From: Schmidtea polychroa
Lineage: Eukaryota
Assembly: GCA_044892525.1 (NCBI GenBank)
Contig: CM097885.1
Location: forward strand, 11,162,001-11,226,000
Direction of reading: 5' to 3'
DNA length: 64,000 bases
In this document: positions 27,362-64,000 of the stretch, piece by piece
Position numbering within the stretch: the first letter of the stretch is position 1
How the letters are laid out: every line of letters starts with the position of its first letter
Notes under the pieces: model-generated
Databases searched by the model: none
Seen by the model: the letters and a program-made list of their open reading frames with translations, nothing else
What the model was told of the DNA's origin: nothing
Position numbers and translations under genes: made by a program

Positions 27362-27701
27362 GTAATAATAATAATAATTATTATTATTATTATTTATTAT
27401 TATTATTATTATTATCATTATTTATTGTTATTAATATTATTTATTATTATTAATATTATTTATTATTATTATTTATTATTAATAATATTATTTATTATTA
27501 TTATTATAATTATTACTATTAATATTAAAATTATAATTTTTTTCATTTTATCACCATTGGTTCATTTTCATTTTTAAAATATACTTAAATAATAGTAGAT
27601 GGATTGGGCACCGCTGGCACAGGGCACCGCTAGCACAGTAGCCCCCCCCCCCCGTCGGTAAGATTTTCAAAAATATTCTAAGTCTAAAAGTACATTTTTT
27701 T

Positions 27702-28318
27702 TCAAGGTCAAATTTAAACAAAGACATATGACTCATCAAGGTCATTGAGACAAAGACCATGACTCATATTATGACTCATCAAATTTTTCAAGGTCATTTA
27801 AACAAAGGCCATGAGTCATCATATGACTCATCAAGGTCATTTTCAAGGTCATATGACTCATACTATGACTCATCAAGGTCAAAAAAATTTTCTCAGGGTC
27901 ATTTAAACAAAGGCCATGGCTCATCAAGGTCATTTTCAAGGTCATATGACTCATACTATGACACATCAAGGTCATTGAAACAAAGACCATGACTCACAGT
28001 ATGACTCATCAAGGGCATTTCCAAGGTCATATGACTCATAATATGACTCATCAAGGTCATTTTCAAGGTCATATGACTCATAGTATGACTCAAATGACCT
28101 TGAAAATTTTTTCAAGGTCATATGACTCATGATATGACTCATCTCGGTCATTCTCAAGGTCTTATGACTCATCCGATGACTCATCAAACTTTTCAAGGTC
28201 ATTTTCAAGGTCATCTGAGTCATTTTATGACTCATCAAGGTCATTTTCAAGGTCACGTGACTCATCCAAGGTCATTCCCAAGGTCATATGAGTCATCGCG
28301 ATGACTCATCAAGGTCAT
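27702..28318. repeat. Subterminal repeat array of TGACTCA and (T)CAAGGTCA motifs
   Basis: By eye about 23 TGA(C/G)TCA and about 21 CAAGGTCA motifs in ~620 bp. Confidence 0.9.
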
Positions 28319-28673
28319 ATTATTATTTTAAAAAATATTATTATTTTTATTATTATTTTTAAAAATATTATTATTTTATTTTTAATTTTTTCAAAGTTCC
28401 CGCCAACGAAAATTAATAATCGATAGCTCATTTTAAAGCTCAATCCAAGACCTTTCGAATGAGCCATATATCTTGTTATTAGTATTATTAGTATTATTAG
28501 TATTAATCTATATACACCGAGTCTATATACTCTGAGTCTATCCGACAAAATATTTTGTCCCCCTATGGGTAATGCTCACAAGGGTACTGGTCACGCTCAA
28601 CAAATCAACAAAACATACATTTATTTAAACAATAAAATAATGTAAAATTAACAAAGGTAAACTTAATATTTAT

Positions 28674-29302
28674 TTACATGTATATAGTATGATATTCATT
28701 AATCAGTGTTGAACAAGCTTGACACTTGCGAACAATCTTCTCGTTACACTTAGAACAAACAATTACGTGACCGCACGGTAAATACAAAACCGAAACTCGA
28801 TTTTCTTTACAAATTGAGCAAGTTAAATACCTTTTCTTAACATCGCTCAGTTTTTTCGTTAGCTTATTTTCAATCAAATCGGTTTTTGCTATCCAATCAT
28901 AAATCAATCTACTATATCCAGGTTTCAACCTTAAAAACATACAACTCCAAAAGTATTCATTCAGTGAATCATTGTTTACTGCTATTTTTTCTAAGTACAT
29001 TAAATAACAAGATAACTTTAAAATGGATTTCTCATAATTAAATAAATCAAACAAATATTCAATAGAGGAATGTTTGAAAATCTTTAAAATATTTATGAGT
29101 TGCTTATCACTGTAAGTATCATGATTATTTATAAAATCTTCAACTGTGTTGTTAAAAAATTTCATTGAAATTTCGGAATCGGTCGGACTTAATTTTTCCT
29201 TATTTCTTCCTTGCTATAAATGACATATATAAAAAAATATTGACAAAATAATAAAGTTACCAAATGTGTTACACATTCATCAATTTTATTTGTAGAAATC
29301 AT
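28674..29302 (-). CDS. IAP/MDM2-type C-terminal RING finger protein; predicted exons 29302-29261 and 29213-28674
   Basis: CSICKE..VLYLPCGHVIVCSKC..CQACSTLI..IYM*; frame open upstream to an AG at 29215-29214; 47-nt GT-AG intron joins MISTNKIDECVTHL in frame. Confidence 0.8.
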
Positions 29303-29430
29303 TAGTAATAAATAACTAAATTACTTTTGTTCTTACATTTATAAAATGTGATAGCCAATCAAAATATAGAAATTGTAACCATCAAATGGATAATAAGCAT
29401 GACTAGTAACCTTGCAAGCTGTTTAAAGTT

Positions 29431-29464
<34 letters not shown>

Positions 29465-29479
29465 GCAAGCTGTTTAAAG

Positions 29480-29522
<43 letters not shown>

Positions 29523-29572
29523 ATTATTATTATTATTATTAATATTATTATTATTATGCAAGCTGTTTAAAG

Positions 29573-29624
<52 letters not shown>

Positions 29625-29632
29625 GTGATTGA

Positions 29633-29855
29633 TATAGCTGCATGCTCACTGCAGACTATACTTATATAGCTGCATGCTCACTGCAGACTATACTTATATA
29701 GCTGCATGCTCACTGCAGACTATATATAAAAATACTGATATAGCTGCATGCTCACTGCAGACTATATATAAAAAAAAAACTGATATAGCTGCATGCTCAC
29801 TGCAGACTATATATAAAAAAAAACTGATATAGCTGCATGCTCACTGCAGACTATA
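29633..29855. repeat. Array of six 28-nt hairpin repeats TATAGCTGCATGCTCACTGCAGACTATA
   Basis: Units start at 29633, 29665, 29697, 29739, 29784, 29828. Confidence 0.92.
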
Positions 29856-30086
29856 TAAAAATCACCATTAAATATAAAAAATTATAATAAAAGACCAAAT
29901 ACTTAAAAAATTAAAAAAAAAAAATCTGATTAAAAATTTTATTGAATATGTATATATAAATACAAGTTTTATACAATATACAGGTTTTTGTACAAGTTTT
30001 TAAATAAAAGTTTCTATACAATTTTTTATAAATCATGAAATCACTATACAAGTTTTTATAAATCAAAAATATAAAGTTTTTTCTAT

Positions 30087-33000
30087 TTAAATTTGATCTT
30101 CGTCCCATTCGCTGTCGTCAAAACTGGGACTTGGAGCTGCACTGAATTCCTCATCATATTCGCTTAAATCGTCAACTCCTAAATAGTGCCCAAATGCGTA
30201 ACTTATGTTTTTTCCTAGCCACGCGCGCTTATCATCATTATTACTTAGGGCAATTTTCGAATTTTTAAAAGTAAAAAGTTGGTGATTTCTAGTACCTATT
30301 CTAGTCTGCGGTACAGAAATCACCTGATTTGAATGAAAGCAATTTAGATATGATTCGTGATTTATTGATGTCCCTGGTAATTTAACCCCTTTCGCTTTTA
30401 CTGTTTCCTTACTACCTAAAAGACTATAACATTTAGGGCGTAAGAAAACCCATTCAGAATAACCTAATCCCTTGCTCTCATCTTTAAACTTCCCGATGAC
30501 AGAGTCAAGGTTCCTATTATATAAGGGGTGTGTTGGATCGTAATTTGACGTATCCAATAAATTATCAGAGATCATCTGAGGTAATAGAGTTGTTAATTTT
30601 AAATTTTTAATTTCCAAAAAGAAACTGTCGGTATCACCGGCAATAATATTAATTATACATTTATATTGGCGTCTGTACTTCTCCAAATCAATATATTGGA
30701 GCTGGTACATCCGCAGTTTAGACAGATCTAGTACTGTTTGACCAATGTAGCTAGGTCTGTCTAAACAAATCACATCTTTTTCCAAATGTGCCGCAATCAG
30801 ATCGTTATCGATTCTTATGGACTTTCTGAAAGTCGGCTTTGAGGAGTATACTATCATCTTTTCGGATGAATTACACAACCTCAAATTCATTCTTTTTTTC
30901 AAATTTTCAACCGATTTACCGTAAAGAGAGTTATTATACAATTTAAACAAGTCCCTATATATCTCGCTAGTAGACTGAGATCGTAAAGTGGTGTTGGTGT
31001 CTATGTAGGATTTAAAGATAGGTCCTTGTTTAAACTTTATACATCTATGAATATTTACAACAACCGCACCTAATTCTATATACAATTTGAGAAGCTTCCA
31101 ATGAAGAACATAATTCCTCTTTGGCCAATGCGTAAGCATAAGCTTCTCAACTTTTGAATTAGGCGGGCACAACTTTTCCGGCGCAAGCGGAAAATCATTC
31201 AAAAAGTCATGCACACATTCCGGAATATCGATATCGACCTCCATAGTATACCCATATGGAAGGTTATCAATATCCGTGTTCATACATTCAAGTAAAACAT
31301 CATTCAAGTTATTATTCACCCAAGAAAAATCACCATACGGAAGATTTTGGCTAAGAGCCCAACCATACAGATTATTTATATCAATGTACAATAATTCTGT
31401 ATCATCTGAAGTAGCCGTGTAATGTTTGTTAACAAATGTTAACCCACCCCGGATACCTCCCTCATAGAAATTATACATTTCCATGTCCTGCAGAAGTTCT
31501 ATTGGTTCCGTTAATGTCATAAGCGCTGAGGCCCATGACATACCGGGAATCCCGTAGAAATTAAGAGGATCCAGACCATTGTAAGCAATTGCCTTACCGC
31601 GGAATTGCTGAAAATAATCTGCGAGGAGGTATACGTCCAATTTTAGGTAGATTAACATATAATCTAACAAATTATTACAGTTATGCTGACTCCAAATTAG
31701 TTGAGCCTCAGCGTACTGATCTTCCGTAACATCAGACCAAATAGGAGGTAATTCTAAAGTCGATTCAAGAACATCCAAAGAAGTAGCGAAATTATATGGA
31801 AAGATACCTTTAGAGTGAATCATCGACCCTTGAAAGACAGACGAAGTTAACGGAAAAGTAGTTAAGGTTTTCACAGCTTTTGCTAAAGAACAATTAACAA
31901 ATTGCATGCTGTCAATAAAACGAACAGGCAATTTGTTAATATATGCAATTAAAGATATAAATTTTTCTGTAGAGGTAGGTATAATATTAAGTTCCCAAAG
32001 GGGAAAATCACTGAGACCATGTTTTAAAATATGGTGGAGGTCATAGCCTCGTAAATTATGAAAGACAACAGGTAACAATTTATTAATCCTGCGAGAGATA
32101 TTGCATTTCCTACATGCCGCTCCGACATATCTACCTGTAAAATGGCAATGATCTCTCACAGGATTAATAATAGATTTTTTACACAAATAACAAATAGTGG
32201 TAGATCGAAAGGCACGCTCCTGAGCAAAAGACAAAGTAGACATACCTTTACGACCTTCAAGTTCATAATATGGCAGGACAATTGTGACAGCAATTTCCTC
32301 CACTTTCCTCAAAAAATCCAAAATACAATTAGGTCCAAAAAAATAATAATAAAATTTTGTGTTTGTATAATTATTAATTAATAAAAGACCTGCTGATATG
32401 GGTAAATGTATTTGATGATATGTTTCATGTTCTGGTAAAACCGATTCAAAATCGGCATAAATTACGAAGGGAGGTGTAACTGTTTTTGCGTAATCTGTGA
32501 ATAATAAATCCTTATTTTTAGGAAGTGTATACAAGGTTGTGCCAGTCTGATTTTTACAGCATAGAGCAACATGCTGATCGAAAGCATTCTTATATCTAAA
32601 GCCATTTAAACAATGTGGGCACCAGTTACACCTTTTTTGAACGTTAACATTTTCATTTAAATGGCAATTCATTAATTTGTCCAAGTCTGTCACGGCCGTA
32701 TAATGATATTTATCTTTATTACTCAAAAGTAATAAATAAATTGGCCTACCATCTATAACCTTGGAGCGATGTATGATATTAAGATGAGGGTGGTGAGCTA
32801 CATAATCCTGAGAAATATCACTATCAGTACTGGCTGGATTATACGAAAGAACGTTTATGCTTAAATTTAAATCACGATTTTTCCTTTCAAATTTAGGAAT
32901 GTTACATAGCCTCATCGGGCAATCGGTGTCTTCGTCATAATTTAATAGAGGTAAAAATTCTATATATTTGGCGGCTCTTTGGTGATTACGACCTATTTCT

Positions 33001-34141
33001 TCTCTTTTTAAAAGTGCAAGAATGCTATATAAGAAACACTTATGGTCGTTGTTTTTAACGTTAATTATTGCATGTTTTAATTTTAAAGCCGATGGGGTTT
33101 TTATATAGCTATGTCCGGATAATCTACTAACGGGTGCGTATTTCGTTAAAATAAAATCTATCTCTAAAATATTCACTACTCGCCACCCGCTTCCTAAATA
33201 GGTGAATTGCTCAATCTTTTCATTTAATTTGCTCACCCCCTCGTTTATAAAATTTGCTGAAAAAACTTGCGCATTGTTTGAAAAATAATTATCCCGGATC
33301 TCCCCATCTTTTTCAAATTTAATTAAAATTGTAAATTGGATTTTTACATTGCCCATCTTTTCTATTTCCTCTATTAATCTTTCTTCAATTTTTGATGTTA
33401 GGGCTATTTTAACCAGGTTTTCATTTCTTATATTAAATTTTAAAGTTTTACGTGATCCATTCAAATCGGATTCAACAACTGGTTCAAACAAAGAGCCGCC
33501 TATTTGACATATGTTGAAAGACGTTGAAGCTACACATTCATCATTGATGACTATCACTTCTTGTTGTGTAATGGGTGATTGTTGTGTAATGGGTGCTTGT
33601 TGTGTAAACGATGTTGAAGCTACACATTCATCTTTGCTGATGACTATCACTTCAGGTCGCGATAATTTATTAGGAATGCAATTTTTAATTAAACCAGCAG
33701 GTCTTTTAATAGAATCTTTTTTAATATTTATAATATCTTTTTTAATAATATTTATAGTATCTTTTTTAATAATAATAGCATCTTTTTTAATAGAATCTGT
33801 TTTTTCTTTTATAATATTTTTTTTAATATTTTTTAAATCTTTTTTAATACCTTTTTTTATATCTTTTTTAATAGTATTTTTTGGTAAATTTTTTGATAAA
33901 TTTTTTTGTAATTTCTTATTTATTTTTTTAAATAAAACATTTTTTGATATCGAAAATTGCCCTAAGTGACTATGATGTTTATTAAAAAATTCCCTATATT
34001 TTATTTTTTCGCTAGTCACGCATTTGGGGCATATAAAAAAGTTGACGGAATTAAACGTCTTTTTGTAGTACTTTTTCATTGTGCGATGACATTTATCGCT
34101 ATGTCCATTTGCAGCTTGACAATAATTTGGGTATAGTCTAC
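30087..34141 (-). CDS. polB: Protein-primed family B DNA polymerase (terminal protein, OTU-like, Zn finger, exonuclease with endonuclease VII-like insert, polymerase)
   Basis: YADFES, FHNLRGYD, FIDS, KGIFPY, YIDINNLYG, KLYNNSLYGK, GDTDS, RPKCY; DHCHFTGRYVGAACRKCN; NNDHKCFLYS..HY; ATG at 34079, frame open to the acceptor at 34141. Confidence 0.95.
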
Positions 34142-34198
34142 CTGTTAAATAATAAAATTAAAGTTTTTTCTTTTTTCTAATTGTTATTAATTGTTACA

Positions 34199-34272
34199 TC
34201 TATAAGGATTTATCATCATTTGTTATTTAATTCAAATGAACTATATAACAAATGATGATAAATCCTTATAGA
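34199..34272. repeat. Perfect 28-bp inverted repeat with 18-nt loop
   Basis: TCTATAAGGATTTATCATCATTTGTTAT / ATAACAAATGATGATAAATCCTTATAGA. Confidence 0.92.
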
Positions 34273-34370
34273 AAATAGGTTAATAGAGAATATTAGAGAG
34301 ATTTTAGTATATGGGTCAGATTATTATATGTTAAATATTAGACGAGTAAGATTATTATTATTAAAGAGAA

Positions 34371-34443
34371 GTAGCTGCATGCTCACTGCAGACTACTATA
34401 TAGCTACATGCTTACTGTAGACAATAGTAGAAGGGTCAGATTA

Positions 34444-34498
<55 letters not shown>

Positions 34499-34591
34499 AT
34501 TATTATTATTAAAGAGAAGTAGCTGCATGCTCACTGCAGACTACTATATAGCTACATGCTTACTGTAGACTATAGTAGAAGGGTCAGATTA

Positions 34592-34649
<58 letters not shown>

Positions 34650-34735
34650 TTATAAAAGAGAAGTAGCTGCATGTTCACTGCAGACTACTATATAGCTACA
34701 TGCTTACTGTAGACTATAGTAGAAGGGTCAGATTA

Positions 34736-34814
<79 letters not shown>

Positions 34815-34900
34815 TTATAAAAGAGAAGTAGCTGCATGTTCACTGCAGACTACTATATAGCTACATGCTTACTGTAGACTATAGTAGAAGGGTCAGATTA

Positions 34901-34958
<58 letters not shown>

Positions 34959-35044
34959 TTATAAAAGAGAAGTAGCTGCATGTTCACTGCAGACTACTAT
35001 ATAGCTACATGCTTATTGTAGACTATAGTAGAAGGGTCAGATTA

Positions 35045-35078
<34 letters not shown>

Positions 35079-35147
35079 TTATAAAAGAGAAGTAGCTACA
35101 TGCTTACTGTAGACTACTATGTAGCTACATGCTTACTGTAGACTACA
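34371..35147. repeat. Six double-hairpin units separated by variable (ATT)n tracts
   Basis: GTAGCTGCATG(C/T)TCACTGCAGACTAC + TATAGCTACATGCTTACTGTAGACTATA; same family as the 29633 array. Confidence 0.92.
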
Positions 35148-35150
35148 TTA

Positions 35151-35208
<58 letters not shown>

Positions 35209-35329
35209 TTAACTATTGTAGATGCACATTGCAAACTACAAGGATTTTATAACTATAATTTTGTAATAACTTTTTAAATATTTTCATAATAATTTCAAAA
35301 ACATAGTATTTACTTCATAAATCATTTTC

Positions 35330-35820
35330 TTCATAATTTTCGTCATAAGTTTCATCATAATTTTAGTCATAAAGTATTTTCATCATAAATTTTCGTCATT
35401 ATTTCATCATAATTTTGGTCATAAATCATAAAGCATTTTCATCATAATTTTGGTCATAAATCATAATAAATCATTTTCAGCATAATTTTGGTCATAAATC
35501 ATAAAGCATTTTCATCATAATTTTGATCATAAATCATAAAGCATTTTCATCATAATTTTGGTCATAAAGCATTTTCATCATAATTTTGGTCATAAATCAT
35601 AAAGCATTTTCATCATAATTTTGGTCATAAAGCATTTTCATCATAATTCTGGTCATAAAGCATTTTCATCATAATTTTGGTCATAAATCATAATAAATCA
35701 TTTTCATCATAATAATTCATTTTCATCATAAATTTTCTTCATATTTTCATCATAATCATTTTCTTCATAAATCATTTTTTCATCAATTTTTTGGCATATT
35801 TTCATCATAAAATCATTTTC
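35330..35820. repeat. Minisatellite CATCATAATTTTGGTCATAAA(TCATAAA)GCATTTT
   Basis: Direct inspection; degenerate edges; no ORF in the track. Confidence 0.85.
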
Positions 35821-35964
35821 TTCAACAGTTTCATTATAATTTTTATCCAAATATTTAAAAAATTTTTTATCAAAATGTTTTTTTTTTTATGAAAATATTT
35901 AAAAAGTTGTTACGAAATTTTAATAAATTTTAATATAAAAAATATAAAAATAAATGAATCTTAC

Positions 35965-36293
35965 ATTTCGATTCCATATCGGAATCAGAGTCCTCCTCAT
36001 TAGAAGCGATGTCATTCATTTCGTCCATATTAGAACTATTATCGGAATCATCATCTTCAGCAATTTCATAATCTTCGGCATCAATGTCAACATTGAAAAC
36101 ATTTGAATTTGAACATTTGAAAACATTTGAAACATTTTCTAAAATGAAAAATTAATTTAATAAAGTGAAAAATAATAAAATTTACTTTTTTCTTCGAAAA
36201 CCTTGTTTTGCCCAACATCCTTAACTGGGGCATCAATAAATATCAAATCCTCATCGGCATTAATTTCTTCGTCTTCGCTAATAGTAATAATAC
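35965..36293 (-). pseudogene. Last two acidic mini-exons of the Polinton spliced leader, cut by the duplication junction
   Basis: Identical to 62422-62750; upstream exons and ATG missing. Confidence 0.6.
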
Positions 36294-36306
36294 ATGTATT
36301 CGTAGA

Positions 36307-53812: not shown

Positions 53813-54152
53813 GTAATAATAATAATAATTATTATTATTATTATTTATTATTATTATTATTATTATCATTATTTATTGTTATTAATATTATTTATTATTA
53901 TTAATATTATTTATTATTATTATTTATTATTAATAATATTATTTATTATTATTATTATAATTATTACTATTAATATTAAAATTATAATTTTTTTCATTTT
54001 ATCACCATTGGTTCATTTTCATTTTTAAAATATACTTAAATAATAGTAGATGGATTGGGCACCGCTGGCACAGGGCACCGCTAGCACAGTAGCCCCCCCC
54101 CCCCGTCGGTAAGATTTTCAAAAATATTCTAAGTCTAAAAGTACATTTTTTT

Positions 54153-54769
54153 TCAAGGTCAAATTTAAACAAAGACATATGACTCATCAAGGTCATTGAG
54201 ACAAAGACCATGACTCATATTATGACTCATCAAATTTTTCAAGGTCATTTAAACAAAGGCCATGAGTCATCATATGACTCATCAAGGTCATTTTCAAGGT
54301 CATATGACTCATACTATGACTCATCAAGGTCAAAAAAATTTTCTCAGGGTCATTTAAACAAAGGCCATGGCTCATCAAGGTCATTTTCAAGGTCATATGA
54401 CTCATACTATGACACATCAAGGTCATTGAAACAAAGACCATGACTCACAGTATGACTCATCAAGGGCATTTCCAAGGTCATATGACTCATAATATGACTC
54501 ATCAAGGTCATTTTCAAGGTCATATGACTCATAGTATGACTCAAATGACCTTGAAAATTTTTTCAAGGTCATATGACTCATGATATGACTCATCTCGGTC
54601 ATTCTCAAGGTCTTATGACTCATCCGATGACTCATCAAACTTTTCAAGGTCATTTTCAAGGTCATCTGAGTCATTTTATGACTCATCAAGGTCATTTTCA
54701 AGGTCACGTGACTCATCCAAGGTCATTCCCAAGGTCATATGAGTCATCGCGATGACTCATCAAGGTCAT
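54153..54769. repeat. TGACTCA/CAAGGTCA array (copy 2)
   Basis: Duplicate of 27702-28318. Confidence 0.9.
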
Positions 54770-55124
54770 ATTATTATTTTAAAAAATATTATTATTTTTA
54801 TTATTATTTTTAAAAATATTATTATTTTATTTTTAATTTTTTCAAAGTTCCCGCCAACGAAAATTAATAATCGATAGCTCATTTTAAAGCTCAATCCAAG
54901 ACCTTTCGAATGAGCCATATATCTTGTTATTAGTATTATTAGTATTATTAGTATTAATCTATATACACCGAGTCTATATACTCTGAGTCTATCCGACAAA
55001 ATATTTTGTCCCCCTATGGGTAATGCTCACAAGGGTACTGGTCACGCTCAACAAATCAACAAAACATACATTTATTTAAACAATAAAATAATGTAAAATT
55101 AACAAAGGTAAACTTAATATTTAT

Positions 55125-55753
55125 TTACATGTATATAGTATGATATTCATTAATCAGTGTTGAACAAGCTTGACACTTGCGAACAATCTTCTCGTTACAC
55201 TTAGAACAAACAATTACGTGACCGCACGGTAAATACAAAACCGAAACTCGATTTTCTTTACAAATTGAGCAAGTTAAATACCTTTTCTTAACATCGCTCA
55301 GTTTTTTCGTTAGCTTATTTTCAATCAAATCGGTTTTTGCTATCCAATCATAAATCAATCTACTATATCCAGGTTTCAACCTTAAAAACATACAACTCCA
55401 AAAGTATTCATTCAGTGAATCATTGTTTACTGCTATTTTTTCTAAGTACATTAAATAACAAGATAACTTTAAAATGGATTTCTCATAATTAAATAAATCA
55501 AACAAATATTCAATAGAGGAATGTTTGAAAATCTTTAAAATATTTATGAGTTGCTTATCACTGTAAGTATCATGATTATTTATAAAATCTTCAACTGTGT
55601 TGTTAAAAAATTTCATTGAAATTTCGGAATCGGTCGGACTTAATTTTTCCTTATTTCTTCCTTGCTATAAATGACATATATAAAAAAATATTGACAAAAT
55701 AATAAAGTTACCAAATGTGTTACACATTCATCAATTTTATTTGTAGAAATCAT
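55125..55753 (-). CDS. IAP-type RING protein (copy 2); exons 55753-55712, 55664-55125
   Basis: Duplicate of 28674-29302. Confidence 0.8.
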
Positions 55754-55881
55754 TAGTAATAAATAACTAAATTACTTTTGTTCTTACATTTATAAAATGT
55801 GATAGCCAATCAAAATATAGAAATTGTAACCATCAAATGGATAATAAGCATGACTAGTAACCTTGCAAGCTGTTTAAAGTT

Positions 55882-55915
<34 letters not shown>

Positions 55916-55930
55916 GCAAGCTGTTTAAAG

Positions 55931-55979
<49 letters not shown>

Positions 55980-56029
55980 ATTATTATTATTATTATTAAT
56001 ATTATTATTATTATGCAAGCTGTTTAAAG

Positions 56030-56081
<52 letters not shown>

Positions 56082-56089
56082 GTGATTGA

Positions 56090-56312
56090 TATAGCTGCAT
56101 GCTCACTGCAGACTATACTTATATAGCTGCATGCTCACTGCAGACTATACTTATATAGCTGCATGCTCACTGCAGACTATATATAAAAATACTGATATAG
56201 CTGCATGCTCACTGCAGACTATATATAAAAAAAAAACTGATATAGCTGCATGCTCACTGCAGACTATATATAAAAAAAAACTGATATAGCTGCATGCTCA
56301 CTGCAGACTATA
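56090..56312. repeat. Six-unit hairpin array (copy 2)
   Basis: Duplicate of 29633-29855. Confidence 0.92.
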
Positions 56313-56543
56313 TAAAAATCACCATTAAATATAAAAAATTATAATAAAAGACCAAATACTTAAAAAATTAAAAAAAAAAAATCTGATTAAAAATTTTATT
56401 GAATATGTATATATAAATACAAGTTTTATACAATATACAGGTTTTTGTACAAGTTTTTAAATAAAAGTTTCTATACAATTTTTTATAAATCATGAAATCA
56501 CTATACAAGTTTTTATAAATCAAAAATATAAAGTTTTTTCTAT

Positions 56544-59500
56544 TTAAATTTGATCTTCGTCCCATTCGCTGTCGTCAAAACTGGGACTTGGAGCTGCACT
56601 GAATTCCTCATCATATTCGCTTAAATCGTCAACTCCTAAATAGTGCCCAAATGCGTAACTTATGTTTTTTCCTAGCCACGCGCGCTTATCATCATTATTA
56701 CTTAGGGCAATTTTCGAATTTTTAAAAGTAAAAAGTTGGTGATTTCTAGTACCTATTCTAGTCTGCGGTACAGAAATCACCTGATTTGAATGAAAGCAAT
56801 TTAGATATGATTCGTGATTTATTGATGTCCCTGGTAATTTAACCCCTTTCGCTTTTACTGTTTCCTTACTACCTAAAAGACTATAACATTTAGGGCGTAA
56901 GAAAACCCATTCAGAATAACCTAATCCCTTGCTCTCATCTTTAAACTTCCCGATGACAGAGTCAAGGTTCCTATTATATAAGGGGTGTGTTGGATCGTAA
57001 TTTGACGTATCCAATAAATTATCAGAGATCATCTGAGGTAATAGAGTTGTTAATTTTAAATTTTTAATTTCCAAAAAGAAACTGTCGGTATCACCGGCAA
57101 TAATATTAATTATACATTTATATTGGCGTCTGTACTTCTCCAAATCAATATATTGGAGCTGGTACATCCGCAGTTTAGACAGATCTAGTACTGTTTGACC
57201 AATGTAGCTAGGTCTGTCTAAACAAATCACATCTTTTTCCAAATGTGCCGCAATCAGATCGTTATCGATTCTTATGGACTTTCTGAAAGTCGGCTTTGAG
57301 GAGTATACTATCATCTTTTCGGATGAATTACACAACCTCAAATTCATTCTTTTTTTCAAATTTTCAACCGATTTACCGTAAAGAGAGTTATTATACAATT
57401 TAAACAAGTCCCTATATATCTCGCTAGTAGACTGAGATCGTAAAGTGGTGTTGGTGTCTATGTAGGATTTAAAGATAGGTCCTTGTTTAAACTTTATACA
57501 TCTATGAATATTTACAACAACCGCACCTAATTCTATATACAATTTGAGAAGCTTCCAATGAAGAACATAATTCCTCTTTGGCCAATGCGTAAGCATAAGC
57601 TTCTCAACTTTTGAATTAGGCGGGCACAACTTTTCCGGCGCAAGCGGAAAATCATTCAAAAAGTCATGCACACATTCCGGAATATCGATATCGACCTCCA
57701 TAGTATACCCATATGGAAGGTTATCAATATCCGTGTTCATACATTCAAGTAAAACATCATTCAAGTTATTATTCACCCAAGAAAAATCACCATACGGAAG
57801 ATTTTGGCTAAGAGCCCAACCATACAGATTATTTATATCAATGTACAATAATTCTGTATCATCTGAAGTAGCCGTGTAATGTTTGTTAACAAATGTTAAC
57901 CCACCCCGGATACCTCCCTCATAGAAATTATACATTTCCATGTCCTGCAGAAGTTCTATTGGTTCCGTTAATGTCATAAGCGCTGAGGCCCATGACATAC
58001 CGGGAATCCCGTAGAAATTAAGAGGATCCAGACCATTGTAAGCAATTGCCTTACCGCGGAATTGCTGAAAATAATCTGCGAGGAGGTATACGTCCAATTT
58101 TAGGTAGATTAACATATAATCTAACAAATTATTACAGTTATGCTGACTCCAAATTAGTTGAGCCTCAGCGTACTGATCTTCCGTAACATCAGACCAAATA
58201 GGAGGTAATTCTAAAGTCGATTCAAGAACATCCAAAGAAGTAGCGAAATTATATGGAAAGATACCTTTAGAGTGAATCATCGACCCTTGAAAGACAGACG
58301 AAGTTAACGGAAAAGTAGTTAAGGTTTTCACAGCTTTTGCTAAAGAACAATTAACAAATTGCATGCTGTCAATAAAACGAACAGGCAATTTGTTAATATA
58401 TGCAATTAAAGATATAAATTTTTCTGTAGAGGTAGGTATAATATTAAGTTCCCAAAGGGGAAAATCACTGAGACCATGTTTTAAAATATGGTGGAGGTCA
58501 TAGCCTCGTAAATTATGAAAGACAACAGGTAACAATTTATTAATCCTGCGAGAGATATTGCATTTCCTACATGCCGCTCCGACATATCTACCTGTAAAAT
58601 GGCAATGATCTCTCACAGGATTAATAATAGATTTTTTACACAAATAACAAATAGTGGTAGATCGAAAGGCACGCTCCTGAGCAAAAGACAAAGTAGACAT
58701 ACCTTTACGACCTTCAAGTTCATAATATGGCAGGACAATTGTGACAGCAATTTCCTCCACTTTCCTCAAAAAATCCAAAATACAATTAGGTCCAAAAAAA
58801 TAATAATAAAATTTTGTGTTTGTATAATTATTAATTAATAAAAGACCTGCTGATATGGGTAAATGTATTTGATGATATGTTTCATGTTCTGGTAAAACCG
58901 ATTCAAAATCGGCATAAATTACGAAGGGAGGTGTAACTGTTTTTGCGTAATCTGTGAATAATAAATCCTTATTTTTAGGAAGTGTATACAAGGTTGTGCC
59001 AGTCTGATTTTTACAGCATAGAGCAACATGCTGATCGAAAGCATTCTTATATCTAAAGCCATTTAAACAATGTGGGCACCAGTTACACCTTTTTTGAACG
59101 TTAACATTTTCATTTAAATGGCAATTCATTAATTTGTCCAAGTCTGTCACGGCCGTATAATGATATTTATCTTTATTACTCAAAAGTAATAAATAAATTG
59201 GCCTACCATCTATAACCTTGGAGCGATGTATGATATTAAGATGAGGGTGGTGAGCTACATAATCCTGAGAAATATCACTATCAGTACTGGCTGGATTATA
59301 CGAAAGAACGTTTATGCTTAAATTTAAATCACGATTTTTCCTTTCAAATTTAGGAATGTTACATAGCCTCATCGGGCAATCGGTGTCTTCGTCATAATTT
59401 AATAGAGGTAAAAATTCTATATATTTGGCGGCTCTTTGGTGATTACGACCTATTTCTTCTCTTTTTAAAAGTGCAAGAATGCTATATAAGAAACACTTAT

Positions 59501-60598
59501 GGTCGTTGTTTTTAACGTTAATTATTGCATGTTTTAATTTTAAAGCCGATGGGGTTTTTATATAGCTATGTCCGGATAATCTACTAACGGGTGCGTATTT
59601 CGTTAAAATAAAATCTATCTCTAAAATATTCACTACTCGCCACCCGCTTCCTAAATAGGTGAATTGCTCAATCTTTTCATTTAATTTGCTCACCCCCTCG
59701 TTTATAAAATTTGCTGAAAAAACTTGCGCATTGTTTGAAAAATAATTATCCCGGATCTCCCCATCTTTTTCAAATTTAATTAAAATTGTAAATTGGATTT
59801 TTACATTGCCCATCTTTTCTATTTCCTCTATTAATCTTTCTTCAATTTTTGATGTTAGGGCTATTTTAACCAGGTTTTCATTTCTTATATTAAATTTTAA
59901 AGTTTTACGTGATCCATTCAAATCGGATTCAACAACTGGTTCAAACAAAGAGCCGCCTATTTGACATATGTTGAAAGACGTTGAAGCTACACATTCATCA
60001 TTGATGACTATCACTTCTTGTTGTGTAATGGGTGATTGTTGTGTAATGGGTGCTTGTTGTGTAAACGATGTTGAAGCTACACATTCATCTTTGCTGATGA
60101 CTATCACTTCAGGTCGCGATAATTTATTAGGAATGCAATTTTTAATTAAACCAGCAGGTCTTTTAATAGAATCTTTTTTAATATTTATAATATCTTTTTT
60201 AATAATATTTATAGTATCTTTTTTAATAATAATAGCATCTTTTTTAATAGAATCTGTTTTTTCTTTTATAATATTTTTTTTAATATTTTTTAAATCTTTT
60301 TTAATACCTTTTTTTATATCTTTTTTAATAGTATTTTTTGGTAAATTTTTTGATAAATTTTTTTGTAATTTCTTATTTATTTTTTTAAATAAAACATTTT
60401 TTGATATCGAAAATTGCCCTAAGTGACTATGATGTTTATTAAAAAATTCCCTATATTTTATTTTTTCGCTAGTCACGCATTTGGGGCATATAAAAAAGTT
60501 GACGGAATTAAACGTCTTTTTGTAGTACTTTTTCATTGTGCGATGACATTTATCGCTATGTCCATTTGCAGCTTGACAATAATTTGGGTATAGTCTAC
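56544..60598 (-). CDS. polB: Protein-primed family B DNA polymerase (copy 2)
   Basis: Same 1330-aa ORF 56544-60536; frame open to the acceptor at 60598. Confidence 0.95.
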
Positions 60599-60655
60599 CT
60601 GTTAAATAATAAAATTAAAGTTTTTTCTTTTTTCTAATTGTTATTAATTGTTACA

Positions 60656-60729
60656 TCTATAAGGATTTATCATCATTTGTTATTTAATTCAAATGAACTA
60701 TATAACAAATGATGATAAATCCTTATAGA
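60656..60729. repeat. Perfect 28-bp inverted repeat (copy 2)
   Basis: Duplicate of 34199-34272. Confidence 0.92.
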
Positions 60730-60827
60730 AAATAGGTTAATAGAGAATATTAGAGAGATTTTAGTATATGGGTCAGATTATTATATGTTAAATATTAGAC
60801 GAGTAAGATTATTATTATTAAAGAGAA

Positions 60828-60900
60828 GTAGCTGCATGCTCACTGCAGACTACTATATAGCTACATGCTTACTGTAGACAATAGTAGAAGGGTCAGATTA

Positions 60901-60955
<55 letters not shown>

Positions 60956-61048
60956 ATTATTATTATTAAAGAGAAGTAGCTGCATGCTCACTGCAGACTA
61001 CTATATAGCTACATGCTTACTGTAGACTATAGTAGAAGGGTCAGATTA

Positions 61049-61103
<55 letters not shown>

Positions 61104-61189
61104 TTATAAAAGAGAAGTAGCTGCATGTTCACTGCAGACTACTATATAGCTACATGCTTACTGTAGACTATAGTAGAAGGGTCAGATTA

Positions 61190-61271
<82 letters not shown>

Positions 61272-61357
61272 TTATAAAAGAGAAGTAGCTGCATGTTCAC
61301 TGCAGACTACTATATAGCTACATGCTTACTGTAGACTATAGTAGAAGGGTCAGATTA

Positions 61358-61415
<58 letters not shown>

Positions 61416-61501
61416 TTATAAAAGAGAAGTAGCTGCATGTTCACTGCAGACTACTATATAGCTACATGCTTATTGTAGACTATAGTAGAAGGGTCAGATT
61501 A

Positions 61502-61535
<34 letters not shown>

Positions 61536-61604
61536 TTATAAAAGAGAAGTAGCTACATGCTTACTGTAGACTACTATGTAGCTACATGCTTACTGTAGAC
61601 TACA
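60828..61604. repeat. Double-hairpin/(ATT)n array (copy 2)
   Basis: Duplicate of 34371-35147. Confidence 0.92.
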
Positions 61605-61607
61605 TTA

Positions 61608-61665
<58 letters not shown>

Positions 61666-61786
61666 TTAACTATTGTAGATGCACATTGCAAACTACAAGG
61701 ATTTTATAACTATAATTTTGTAATAACTTTTTAAATATTTTCATAATAATTTCAAAAACATAGTATTTACTTCATAAATCATTTTC

Positions 61787-62277
61787 TTCATAATTTTCGT
61801 CATAAGTTTCATCATAATTTTAGTCATAAAGTATTTTCATCATAAATTTTCGTCATTATTTCATCATAATTTTGGTCATAAATCATAAAGCATTTTCATC
61901 ATAATTTTGGTCATAAATCATAATAAATCATTTTCAGCATAATTTTGGTCATAAATCATAAAGCATTTTCATCATAATTTTGATCATAAATCATAAAGCA
62001 TTTTCATCATAATTTTGGTCATAAAGCATTTTCATCATAATTTTGGTCATAAATCATAAAGCATTTTCATCATAATTTTGGTCATAAAGCATTTTCATCA
62101 TAATTCTGGTCATAAAGCATTTTCATCATAATTTTGGTCATAAATCATAATAAATCATTTTCATCATAATAATTCATTTTCATCATAAATTTTCTTCATA
62201 TTTTCATCATAATCATTTTCTTCATAAATCATTTTTTCATCAATTTTTTGGCATATTTTCATCATAAAATCATTTTC
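61787..62277. repeat. CATCATAATTTTGGTCATAAA minisatellite (copy 2)
   Basis: Duplicate of 35330-35820. Confidence 0.85.
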
Positions 62278-62421
62278 TTCAACAGTTTCATTATAATTTT
62301 TATCCAAATATTTAAAAAATTTTTTATCAAAATGTTTTTTTTTTTATGAAAATATTTAAAAAGTTGTTACGAAATTTTAATAAATTTTAATATAAAAAAT
62401 ATAAAAATAAATGAATCTTAC

Positions 62422-63212
62422 ATTTCGATTCCATATCGGAATCAGAGTCCTCCTCATTAGAAGCGATGTCATTCATTTCGTCCATATTAGAACTATTATC
62501 GGAATCATCATCTTCAGCAATTTCATAATCTTCGGCATCAATGTCAACATTGAAAACATTTGAATTTGAACATTTGAAAACATTTGAAACATTTTCTAAA
62601 ATGAAAAATTAATTTAATAAAGTGAAAAATAATAAAATTTACTTTTTTCTTCGAAAACCTTGTTTTGCCCAACATCCTTAACTGGGGCATCAATAAATAT
62701 CAAATCCTCATCGGCATTAATTTCTTCGTCTTCGCTAATAGTAATAATACTAGGTTCTAAATGCAAAAATTAATTTAATAAAAATTAAAATTATAAATTT
62801 ACCGATGATATTTTCCGTATTTAAAATCGATTCGGCATTAATTTCTTCATCGTCGTCGCTAATAGTAATAATACTAGGTTATAAATGCAAAAATTAATTT
62901 AATAAAAATTAAAATTATAAATTTACCGATGATATTTTCCGTATTTAAAATCTATTCGGCATTAATTTCTTCATCGTCGTCGCTAACAGTAATAATACTA
63001 GGTTCTAAATGCAAAAATTAATTTAATAAAAATTAAAATTATAAATTTACCAAAGATATTTTCTACATTTAAAAGCGAATCGTTTTCGGTAACCTCATAC
63101 CAGTCGAATGGTTCTAAATAAAATAGAATAAAATATAATAAAATAGAAAAAAAAAATTACCATTCGTCAAAAGACTTCTCAAAACGCGATCGTTATTATT
63201 GTTATTTTGCAT
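62422..63212 (-). CDS. Predicted multi-exon acidic coding leader; exons 63212-63161, 63113-63051, 63004-62927, 62880-62803, 62756-62643, 62595-62422
   Basis: ATG at 63212; GTAA donors and T-rich TAG acceptors with 46-47 nt spacing; all introns phase 1; exon 3 has a TAG and the exon 4 acceptor is AT. Confidence 0.65.
62731..63070. repeat. 124-bp tandem repeat (exon + intron unit), ~2.7 copies
   Basis: TAATAATACTAGGTT.TAAATGCAAAAATTAATTTAATAAAAATTAAAATTATAAATTTACC recurs with period 124. Confidence 0.9.
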
Positions 63213-63572
63213 TTTAGCTAAACAGATTTTTGAAAAATTTAGAAAAATTGTGACAAATTTTAGATTTGTCGATGTTTATAAAGAGAATGAATATTTTCCT
63301 GTCCCAGCCAATGAGAATATAGACACACACACATATACACAGAATATTTTACTCTCTCAACCAATCACACACATGCATGTATGTAATGTAAATCAGTCAG
63401 AATTACATGTGACTGCCTTTGTTAGTCATGCCTTTGTTAACTTGCACTGTGCATGCCTCAGGCAAATGCAGTCTTTATGTTACAAATAATAATATTTATT
63501 AGAATAATAATAAAATTAATTAAAAATAATAATATTTTTCACAATAATAATAATATTAATAATATTAATAAT

Positions 63573-63630
<58 letters not shown>

Positions 63631-63720
63631 TTAATAATAATAATAATAATATTAATAATAACACAACAACAAAGGAAAGGATACATTTATTAAACATCAA
63701 ATTTATTAAACATTTTTTCT

Positions 63721-64000
63721 TTAAACATCAAATTTTTTGTACAATAACCAAGCTAAACAATGTTGACCGCATGTTTGGGTCAAAGGATTTTGAAACATAG
63801 TTTTATTATACACAATAGGTTTTCCCATTGTTTGTAGTTTTGATATCAACAAAGCCGGGTAATAGAAACCCATAGGATCGAACACGAATATATTACCAGG
63901 TTTCACATATATAGCTATCCAATGTTCTCCACCAAGATGAGACGATTGAGTATTGACGATTATTGCTTGATTATTGCTCAAATATGGAATTTTATCAAGA
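63721..64000 (-). CDS. Adenain-like (adenoviral-type) cysteine protease, 5' end outside the window
   Basis: LDKIP..IIVNT..GEHWIAIY..FDPMG..FQNPLTQTCGQHC (His/Asp/Gln/Cys); frame open to the window edge. Confidence 0.9.
   Translation of the reverse strand, partial: LDKIPYLSNNQAIIVNTQSSHLGGEHWIAIYVKPGNIFVFDPMGFYYPALLISKLQTMGKPIVYNKTMFQNPLTQTCGQHCLAWLLYKKFDV

Follow-up and report, generated by a model that had tools for sequence, protein, structure and literature searches.

A covarying bulged hairpin in the predicted last leader intron of the polymerase gene of Schmidtea polychroa Polinton/Maverick elements

How Polintons/Mavericks control their polymerase gene remains a question, and no description of an internal cis-element of these transposons was found in the literature searched. 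The question is raised by a stretch of 64,000 nucleotides from Schmidtea polychroa (GenBank assembly GCA_044892525.1, contig CM097885.1, positions 11,162,001 to 11,226,000 of the forward strand; hereafter the window), in which short imperfect palindromes accompany polB, the DNA polymerase gene of such an element. A first-pass annotation had described one hairpin family bracketing polB and had proposed, among other roles, an origin, a small-RNA precursor or recombination sites. Here we observed that the pairing of the stem is kept while its letters change, and a structural constraint is visible. Judged from its sequence, the element is of a known kind, and the hairpin is a structured cis-element in a virus-like transposon, so far in one clade and one genome, with a putative function. 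The hairpin was described nowhere in the literature searched, which was covered at title and abstract level, with Repbase, subscription papers and supplements outside the search.

Hairpin units and covariation of their stems

The hairpin units of the window are as follows (position 1 is its first letter).

29633..29855, minus strand: 3' hairpin array of six units, about 90 nt past the AATAAA that follows the polB stop codon and ahead of a RING-finger gene
34370..35147, minus strand: intronic hairpin array of 12 units in doublets, with (TAA)n between the doublets (pattern and model matches)
35217..35240, minus strand: terminal variant hairpin with the same outer stem and a 3-nt loop (folding; 24.3 bits)
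56090..56312, minus strand: second copy of the 3' hairpin array, six units (pattern match)
60827..61697, minus strand: second copy of the intronic array (12 units) and of the terminal variant (pattern match)

Each full unit has 28 nt: its outer and inner stems are of 5 bp each, a single base is bulged out between them, and the loop measures 7 nt; folding computation returned this form, as first described, on both strands, as RNA and as DNA. The six 3' units in a single orientation, the twelve further units in the same orientation and the variant near 35217 were all present as annotated. All of them recur at 56090-56312, 60827-61604 and 61674, shifted by 26,457 nt, because positions 9857-36293 are duplicated at 36277-62750 (99.8%). 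The strict unit pattern had 3,863 exact matches in the 781-Mb genome and the reversed control pattern had 0, so that chance is excluded, and the sum of disjoint pattern searches gave a genome total of about 6,300 units. Among the matches listed (100 of 3,863), all 33 clusters were located in Polintons, no more than 1.4 kb away from polB or the RING gene, and therefore a scatter of the motif as a host miniature inverted-repeat element or satellite unrelated to Polintons, the outcome that the first-pass annotation named as refuting, was not encountered in the sample checked.

The loop length and the bulge had been described as fixed. This is true of full units, but two deletion forms exist genome-wide (the terminal form with a 3-nt loop, 42 copies, and a loop-less form, 35 copies), and the bulge base, mostly U on the sense strand, is C or G in some lineages. 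In both deletion forms the outer stem persists and the bulge position still holds an unpaired base, which fits recognition of a fold. The changes reported for the inner and outer stems of the window were confirmed, except that the outer stem given as GTAG/CTAC is actually AGTAG/CTACT, another compensated pair.

Genome-wide, inner pair 3 was G-C in 3,980 and A-T in 1,092 units, with 67 mismatched units in total (32 G-T and 35 A-C). A pattern without C at inner pair 1 gave 894 matches (control, 65), and among the matches listed (100 of 894) there were 86 T-A, 11 A-A, 2 T-G and 1 A-G; with C but without G there were 353 matches, and 93 of the 100 listed were C-A. In the fetched set of 429 units (112 arrays, 69 types), four of the ten pairs vary on both sides, namely outer 1 (T-A/A-T), outer 2 (G-C/A-T/T-A), inner 1 and inner 3, and the remaining six pairs and four loop bases are nearly invariant. 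All 22 common types, defined as those present in three or more arrays, keep the arms TAG/CTA and four of the seven loop bases unchanged. In a spanning tree of these 22 types, 7 changes are compensated, 11 are one-sided and 3 are double changes of another kind. Among 37 types, 94.6% of cells pair, compared with 87.0+/-0.9 after shuffling, and 37 cells changed on both sides, compared with 13.3. Unit counts are element copies and not independent events, and the independent covariation signal amounts to about five to seven double changes. The covariation, whose loss in a larger alignment was to refute the first-pass annotation, persists in this far larger sample.

Place in polB and distribution across lineages

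The polB features to which the hairpins relate are listed below.

30087..34141, minus strand: main exon of polB, encoding a protein-primed family B polymerase (pPolB) with an endonuclease VII-like insert (open reading frame; relatives with PF03175/PF02945)
34142..35964, minus strand: predicted last leader intron of polB, phase 1, GT-AG, 1,823 nt (conserved splice-site sequences)
35308..35824, no strand assigned: a further repeat array of this intron, of TTATGA/GATGAA type and without hairpins (sequence)
35965..36138, minus strand: predicted last, acidic leader exon of polB (sequence; donor conserved)
63274..63280, minus strand: TATAAAC box preceding the start codon predicted for polB at 63212 (sequence)
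63443..63456, minus strand: polB promoter motif sharing 12 of 14 bases with the hairpin core, which it matches on the opposite strand (sequence match)

The array placed upstream of polB by the first-pass annotation is real, but it lies inside the predicted phase-1 intron, between conserved splice-site sequences and in fixed orientation. The acceptor sequence (34142/34141) belongs to the long polB frame, and the acidic exon closes with a donor (35965/35964) in the same phase. Of the 32 copies parsed, all had the acceptor and 28 the donor, across lineages with N-terminal regions only 44-56% identical to that of the window. The RNA evidence is weak: in run X12, which is only guessed to be RNA, the match of one contig stops at 34141, and the same run covers 34289-34326 inside the intron. 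Of the other runs compared, X15 and X18 gave no match and X19 gave two short pieces; gaps in coverage carry no meaning. The polB of the window had no direct PF03175 match and a weak PF02945 match (E=0.0034); many of its closest relatives carry PF03175/PF02945, and its reading frame contains what we take to be recognisable polymerase motifs. Elsewhere in the leader (62590-63160) there are tandem repeats of a micro-exon/intron unit of 121 bp (62711-63082, 93.6%).

All 41 elements of a set from 7 lineages carried the intronic unit; the set is biased, as many of its elements were fetched via the motif. In unbiased sets, it was present in 10 of 10 elements chosen by polB and in all 7 polB-bearing elements among 10 chosen by their terminal inverted repeat (TIR). 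An eighth hairpin-bearing lineage was found in the comparison of swapped modules described below. Between hairpin-bearing lineages the N-terminal polB region is 45-77% identical and the intron flanks differ, and the intron carries 1-16 units, often a single one. A tree of polB sequences unites the 12 hairpin-bearing rows in a single branch (100/99), in which the other lineages have 73-83% core identity to the window's. Sister polB lineages (53-64% identity) are without the hairpin and other repeats occupy their intron; in 200 kb with several sister-lineage copies, there was no covariance-model match (best 9.6 bits, filters off). In the tree, L060 (our handle, as are other L numbers) was placed with them, though its leader region is unclear. 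The view that the intron hairpin is universal among element polBs was abandoned after a region fetched regardless of the motif revealed polB lineages without it. The claim was therefore narrowed, and on sequence comparison the intron hairpin is a mark of one polB clade of 8 lineages.

The bracketing of polB described in the first-pass annotation holds in three of these 8 lineages, where the 3' copy was present in 15 of 15, 7 of 11 and 5 of 5 elements; the conserved feature is the intronic copy, and the 3' copy is optional. It was not found in the other five of the 8 lineages within the 3' sequence covered, of which there is little in some rows. L052 and L054, which have no 3' hairpin, carry a different imperfect dyad, unscored by the model, at a similar distance behind polB.

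Outside this genome, the motif was not found in the metagenome contigs searched, and a single-protein scan of viral contigs found no relative. At 81 outside polB loci (one viral, 80 metagenomic; 30-57% identity; 537 kb), many of which end before the leader region, there was no regular-expression or covariance-model match. In a distant metagenomic Polinton (L184:1465-1535; polB 43-56%), two bulged dyads that differ by one compensated pair immediately precede the TATAAAC box. Since 537 kb contained 11 generic hairpins of the same build, or about one per 49 kb, these dyads are a lead only.

Candidate roles of the hairpin

Considering these results, we propose, tentatively and at rather less than an even chance, that the hairpin acts in the polB pre-mRNA as a protein-bound stem-loop and tunes how the predicted last leader intron is spliced. 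The sense-strand hairpin would fold in the pre-mRNA, and its invariant stem pairs and loop bases would be read by a protein, for which a host splicing factor and the N-terminal Cys/His module of the polymerase are candidates. Binding would tune splicing of the intron and hence the output of full-length polymerase. The number of units would grow as the flanking (TAA)n undergoes slippage and unequal exchange, and the 3' array would be a secondary copy, kept alike through sequence exchange with the intron array. The hairpin likely contributes to setting the amount of polymerase rather than marking polB for excision. In a more specific form, which we regard as unlikely, the N-terminal zinc module of the polymerase would bind the intron hairpin and block the splice that completes that module, with copy number as an activity dial; if true, this autoregulatory hairpin would be the first defined cis-regulatory RNA of Polintons/Mavericks. 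HIV TAR, the phage MS2 and PP7 operators and retroviral intronic export elements are protein-bound viral RNA stem-loops that share with the hairpin a short stem, a single bulge, conserved loop bases, a fixed strand and multimerisation. Unlike them, the hairpin sits in a predicted intron of a DNA replicon, and it has no sequence likeness to them and no Rfam match. Because the hairpin is short and sharply defined, with a natural variant series and hairpin-less sister lineages, the question can be tested in reporters and binding assays without the whole element.

A role as sense-strand RNA agrees with the fixed orientation of the units in the intron and finds suggestive support in the inherited core mismatches, which are G.U on the sense strand at four pairs (four events) and on the other strand at none. 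Single mismatches arising after insertion are even (32 vs 35). On the sense strand, 450 of 465 units read GCAUG, which we take to be the RBFOX motif. The folding energy of the sense strand was lower in 29 of 37 types as RNA and in 28 of 37 as DNA, and with such similar counts this strand test does not discriminate.

Several observations weigh against the splicing role. Outer pair 2 inherits both kinds of mismatch. On the sense strand the four-fold sites of polB carry 173 T to 115 A, a T excess that confounds the G.U skew, since mutation bias could produce it as well. One-sided changes outnumber compensated ones among the 22 common types (11 beside 7), and the count of four covarying pairs was matched by 447 of 500 shuffles of the 37 types. 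Splicing of the last leader intron is supported by sequence and one contig end, and the distance from the hairpin to the acceptor ranges from about 200 to 1,600 nt. This intron also holds non-hairpin repeat arrays, here and in hairpin-less lineages, and thus tolerates repeats. The 3' array starts about 90 nt past AATAAA, likely a poly(A) signal, and therefore probably lies outside the mature polB mRNA, just ahead of the RING gene. Finally, a 13-nt core of the hairpin recurs in the polB promoter, on the opposite strand and unpaired, also in a hairpin-less lineage.

The promoter copies suit a different explanation, in which the hairpin is a multimerised double-stranded DNA site (enhancer or operator) for a factor of the polB promoter, and its arms co-change through template switching in strand-displacement replication. 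The promoter motif shares 12 of 14 core bases. Of the 46 non-unit core matches in 1.24 Mb, 37 precede the polB TATAAAC box, nearly all at a distance of about 58 or 160 nt, and the chance rate of such matches is about 0.1 per 10 kb. The position of the 3' array, past the poly(A) signal and before the RING gene at a distance of 100-250 nt, the other site-like arrays flanking the hairpin arrays and the mirror-image elements in the same family also agree with a DNA site. Template switching is described as converting quasi-palindromes to perfect palindromes (PMC3820800) and as able to yield compensatory changes in a single step, to keep the loop, and to copy the bulge or invert the loop (bioRxiv 10.1101/2021.04.15.439925), and it may have supplied the stem changes. 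Its other products are nearly absent among the units: two without a bulge genome-wide, a truly mirrored bulge in 1 of 4 matches, and an inverted loop in 0 of 465 fetched units. Selection must therefore act besides switching, and the bulge, loop length and loop bases are maintained by something beyond it; the hairpin is a clean case in which structural selection can be separated from template-switch mutation. Moreover, the promoter copies have no outer arms and are not symmetrised, yet the TAG/CTA arms are invariant in all common types, and the terminal form alters the arm-to-core spacing by 4 nt yet retains the outer stem. We consider a DNA site the main rival reading, though a doubtful one; the shared core may reflect a shared ligand, or only an origin of the hairpin from an inverted promoter piece. 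It is improbable that the hairpin folds in the single DNA strand displaced when the element replicates and is recognised there, by the polymerase or a different element protein, as a pause, nick or internal priming site. Such a role would agree with DNA folding on both strands, with a covariation that is blind to RNA or DNA and with the endonuclease VII-like insert of the polymerase, but the hairpin stays linked to the polB intron, it is missing from sister lineages that share the capsid-integrase backbone, and three polB-less, hairpin-less elements (L123/124, L125/126, L263/264) have perfect 6-bp target duplications. Provided that these three moved in hairpin-less form, the hairpin was shown to be dispensable in cis for integration, and an internal origin, as envisaged in the first-pass annotation, is not supported if it is to be needed in cis, nor is a packaging signal of that kind. 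Baculovirus hr repeats resemble the arrays as tandem imperfect palindromes with AT-rich spacers and variable copy number, but the hairpin arrays are not dispersed: they form one or two sites associated with a single gene and are unneeded in cis for integration.

That the hairpin is a neutral quasi-palindromic minisatellite carried by a successful element is very unlikely. The intron does accumulate lineage-specific repeats and the unit counts are copies, but the 28-nt unit was kept across 8 lineages with diverged N-terminal polB regions and differing flanks, often in one copy, and with four of seven loop bases invariant in every common type. The direct orientation, dyad arms and 7-nt spacer resemble recombinase sites, and in lineage 2 the units and flanks are near-identical at both ends (mean distance 6 of 52 nt, vs 14-21 between lineages), as might be expected if recombination between the arrays excised or swapped polB. 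One element (L143) has an intron-type doublet copied into its 3' array, with polB retained, and polB modules were indeed swapped between backbones, as the exchangeable cassette of the first-pass annotation would have it. However, in the three crossovers that could be placed (L106, L137, L065), the switch point falls not within the units but in the (TAA)n tract that precedes them, and the units accompany the main exon. As to excision, there are 5 hybrid-type units genome-wide by a pattern that misses some hybrid kinds, none of them joining both arrays or marking a polB deletion, and the polB-less element L127/L128, with a clean target duplication, broke at a short microhomology elsewhere. The 3' site is also absent from the sequence covered in five of 8 lineages, and there is no tyrosine recombinase among the mapped element genes. 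Integron attC and tyrosine-recombinase core sites are alike in geometry only (imperfect dyad, extrahelical base, pairing kept as letters change), and differ in that no recombinase gene and no array-to-array deletion products were found here. Site-specific recombination is accordingly extremely unlikely. A small-RNA precursor, which a conserved stem-loop within an intron might suggest, has an equally slender chance: microRNA precursors have stems of about 22 pairs or more, the stem here has 10, and an Rfam search over 27500-36300 gave 15 weak matches, none on the arrays and all far below the gathering score.

Other candidates were tried and rejected. A splice choice between polB and RING shared by both arrays was set aside, with the 3' hairpin persisting in RING-less lineages and RING occurring without the 3' hairpin. 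By-eye comparison with consensus sequences of REP (GTAG foot), Pax, p53, Maf, NRF1 and NFI sites found none that fits throughout. The iron-responsive element has a bulged C five pairs below a six-base CAGUGN loop, compared with a sense bulge that is mostly U and a 7-base loop in the hairpin. A microRNA precursor was rejected on stem length.

Two further observations concern polB modules and the promoter. On capsid-integrase backbones that are 90-100% alike, polB modules are 55-72% alike, and promoter, leader and main exon occur in mixed combinations (L239, L244, L105, L106, L137, L065). The polB promoter (63390-63470, minus strand; also L137, L119 and L239) contains CATG-type motifs with an 11-bp period, three of them in L137 and L119, and a TGACT-N9-AGTCA dyad; this period is one base longer than that of what we take to be the p53-type repeat.

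The host element and neighbouring features

The arrays sit in a 17-kb Polinton/Maverick with a 6-bp target duplication, of which there are hundreds of copies in the genome. Its remaining features in the window are the following.

27594..27650, plus strand: left TIR of the first Polinton copy (end approximate; ten other copies start at the same base)
27697..28312, no strand assigned: array of TCAAGGTCA / TGACTCA repeats (sequence)
28674..29213, minus strand: main exon of the RING-finger cargo gene (PF13920, E=9.7e-11; acceptor conserved in copies)
54045..64000, plus strand: second, complete element copy of 17,050 bp, extending past the window (AATAAT target duplication on both sides)

The element TIRs begin 5'-AG and have 780 exact matches on the plus and 803 on the minus strand of the genome; 6-bp target duplications were found in 8 of 9 TIR-chosen elements tested and in 5 of 5 of another set. 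The protease, putative capsid, integrase, ATPase and TBP-like genes of the complete copy lie past the window edge. In a related element (L051), Pfam matches were obtained for the rve integrase (PF00665, 5.8e-8), packaging ATPase (PF04665, 3.2e-7) and adenovirus-type protease (PF00770, 1.2e-6), and the corresponding genes of the window's element are 85-96% identical to them. Two open reading frames of capsid-like size and place had no Pfam match, and the labels MCP, mCP and PZ are our own assignments. A short TBP-family protein is also encoded by the element (PF00352, E=1.4e-15; L051:25-501; L267:2190-2591).

These characters agree with descriptions of Polintons/Mavericks of adintovirus type (PMC6431247, PMC8502044), which have TIRs from AG, a 6-bp target duplication, pPolB, an rve integrase, a packaging ATPase and an adenovirus-type protease. 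Unlike the present element, no internal structured cis-element was found in the portions of these descriptions available, and the available text of PMC8502044 has 0 occurrences of "hairpin" or "splic". Planarian Polintons are reported to be piRNA-silenced and to be de-silenced during differentiation (PMC8532177), which shows that such elements are transcribed in one animal and may bear on the present host.

The 26.45-kb tandem duplication carries host myosin and Rpb5-like exons and transposon fragments, and within the leader of polB it truncates the first of the two Polinton copies; the other is complete. Short site-like repeat arrays that are specific to lineages were observed near the element ends and in the last polB intron, of the types TCAAGGTCA, TGACTCA, TTACGT and GAAAAGAAGA (27697-28312 in the window; L054, L071; L239, L244; L236); the TCAAGGTCA / TGACTCA repeats presumably resemble nuclear-receptor and AP-1 sites. 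A conserved inward-facing block near the end of many lineages (28530-28600 in the window; also L123 and L129) consists of a TATA-like run followed by CCCTATGGG with ATG. In gene-poor elements this block directly precedes the RING gene, like a cargo promoter slot, and in L060 and L132 the RING gene is present in three to four tandem copies behind one 3' array.

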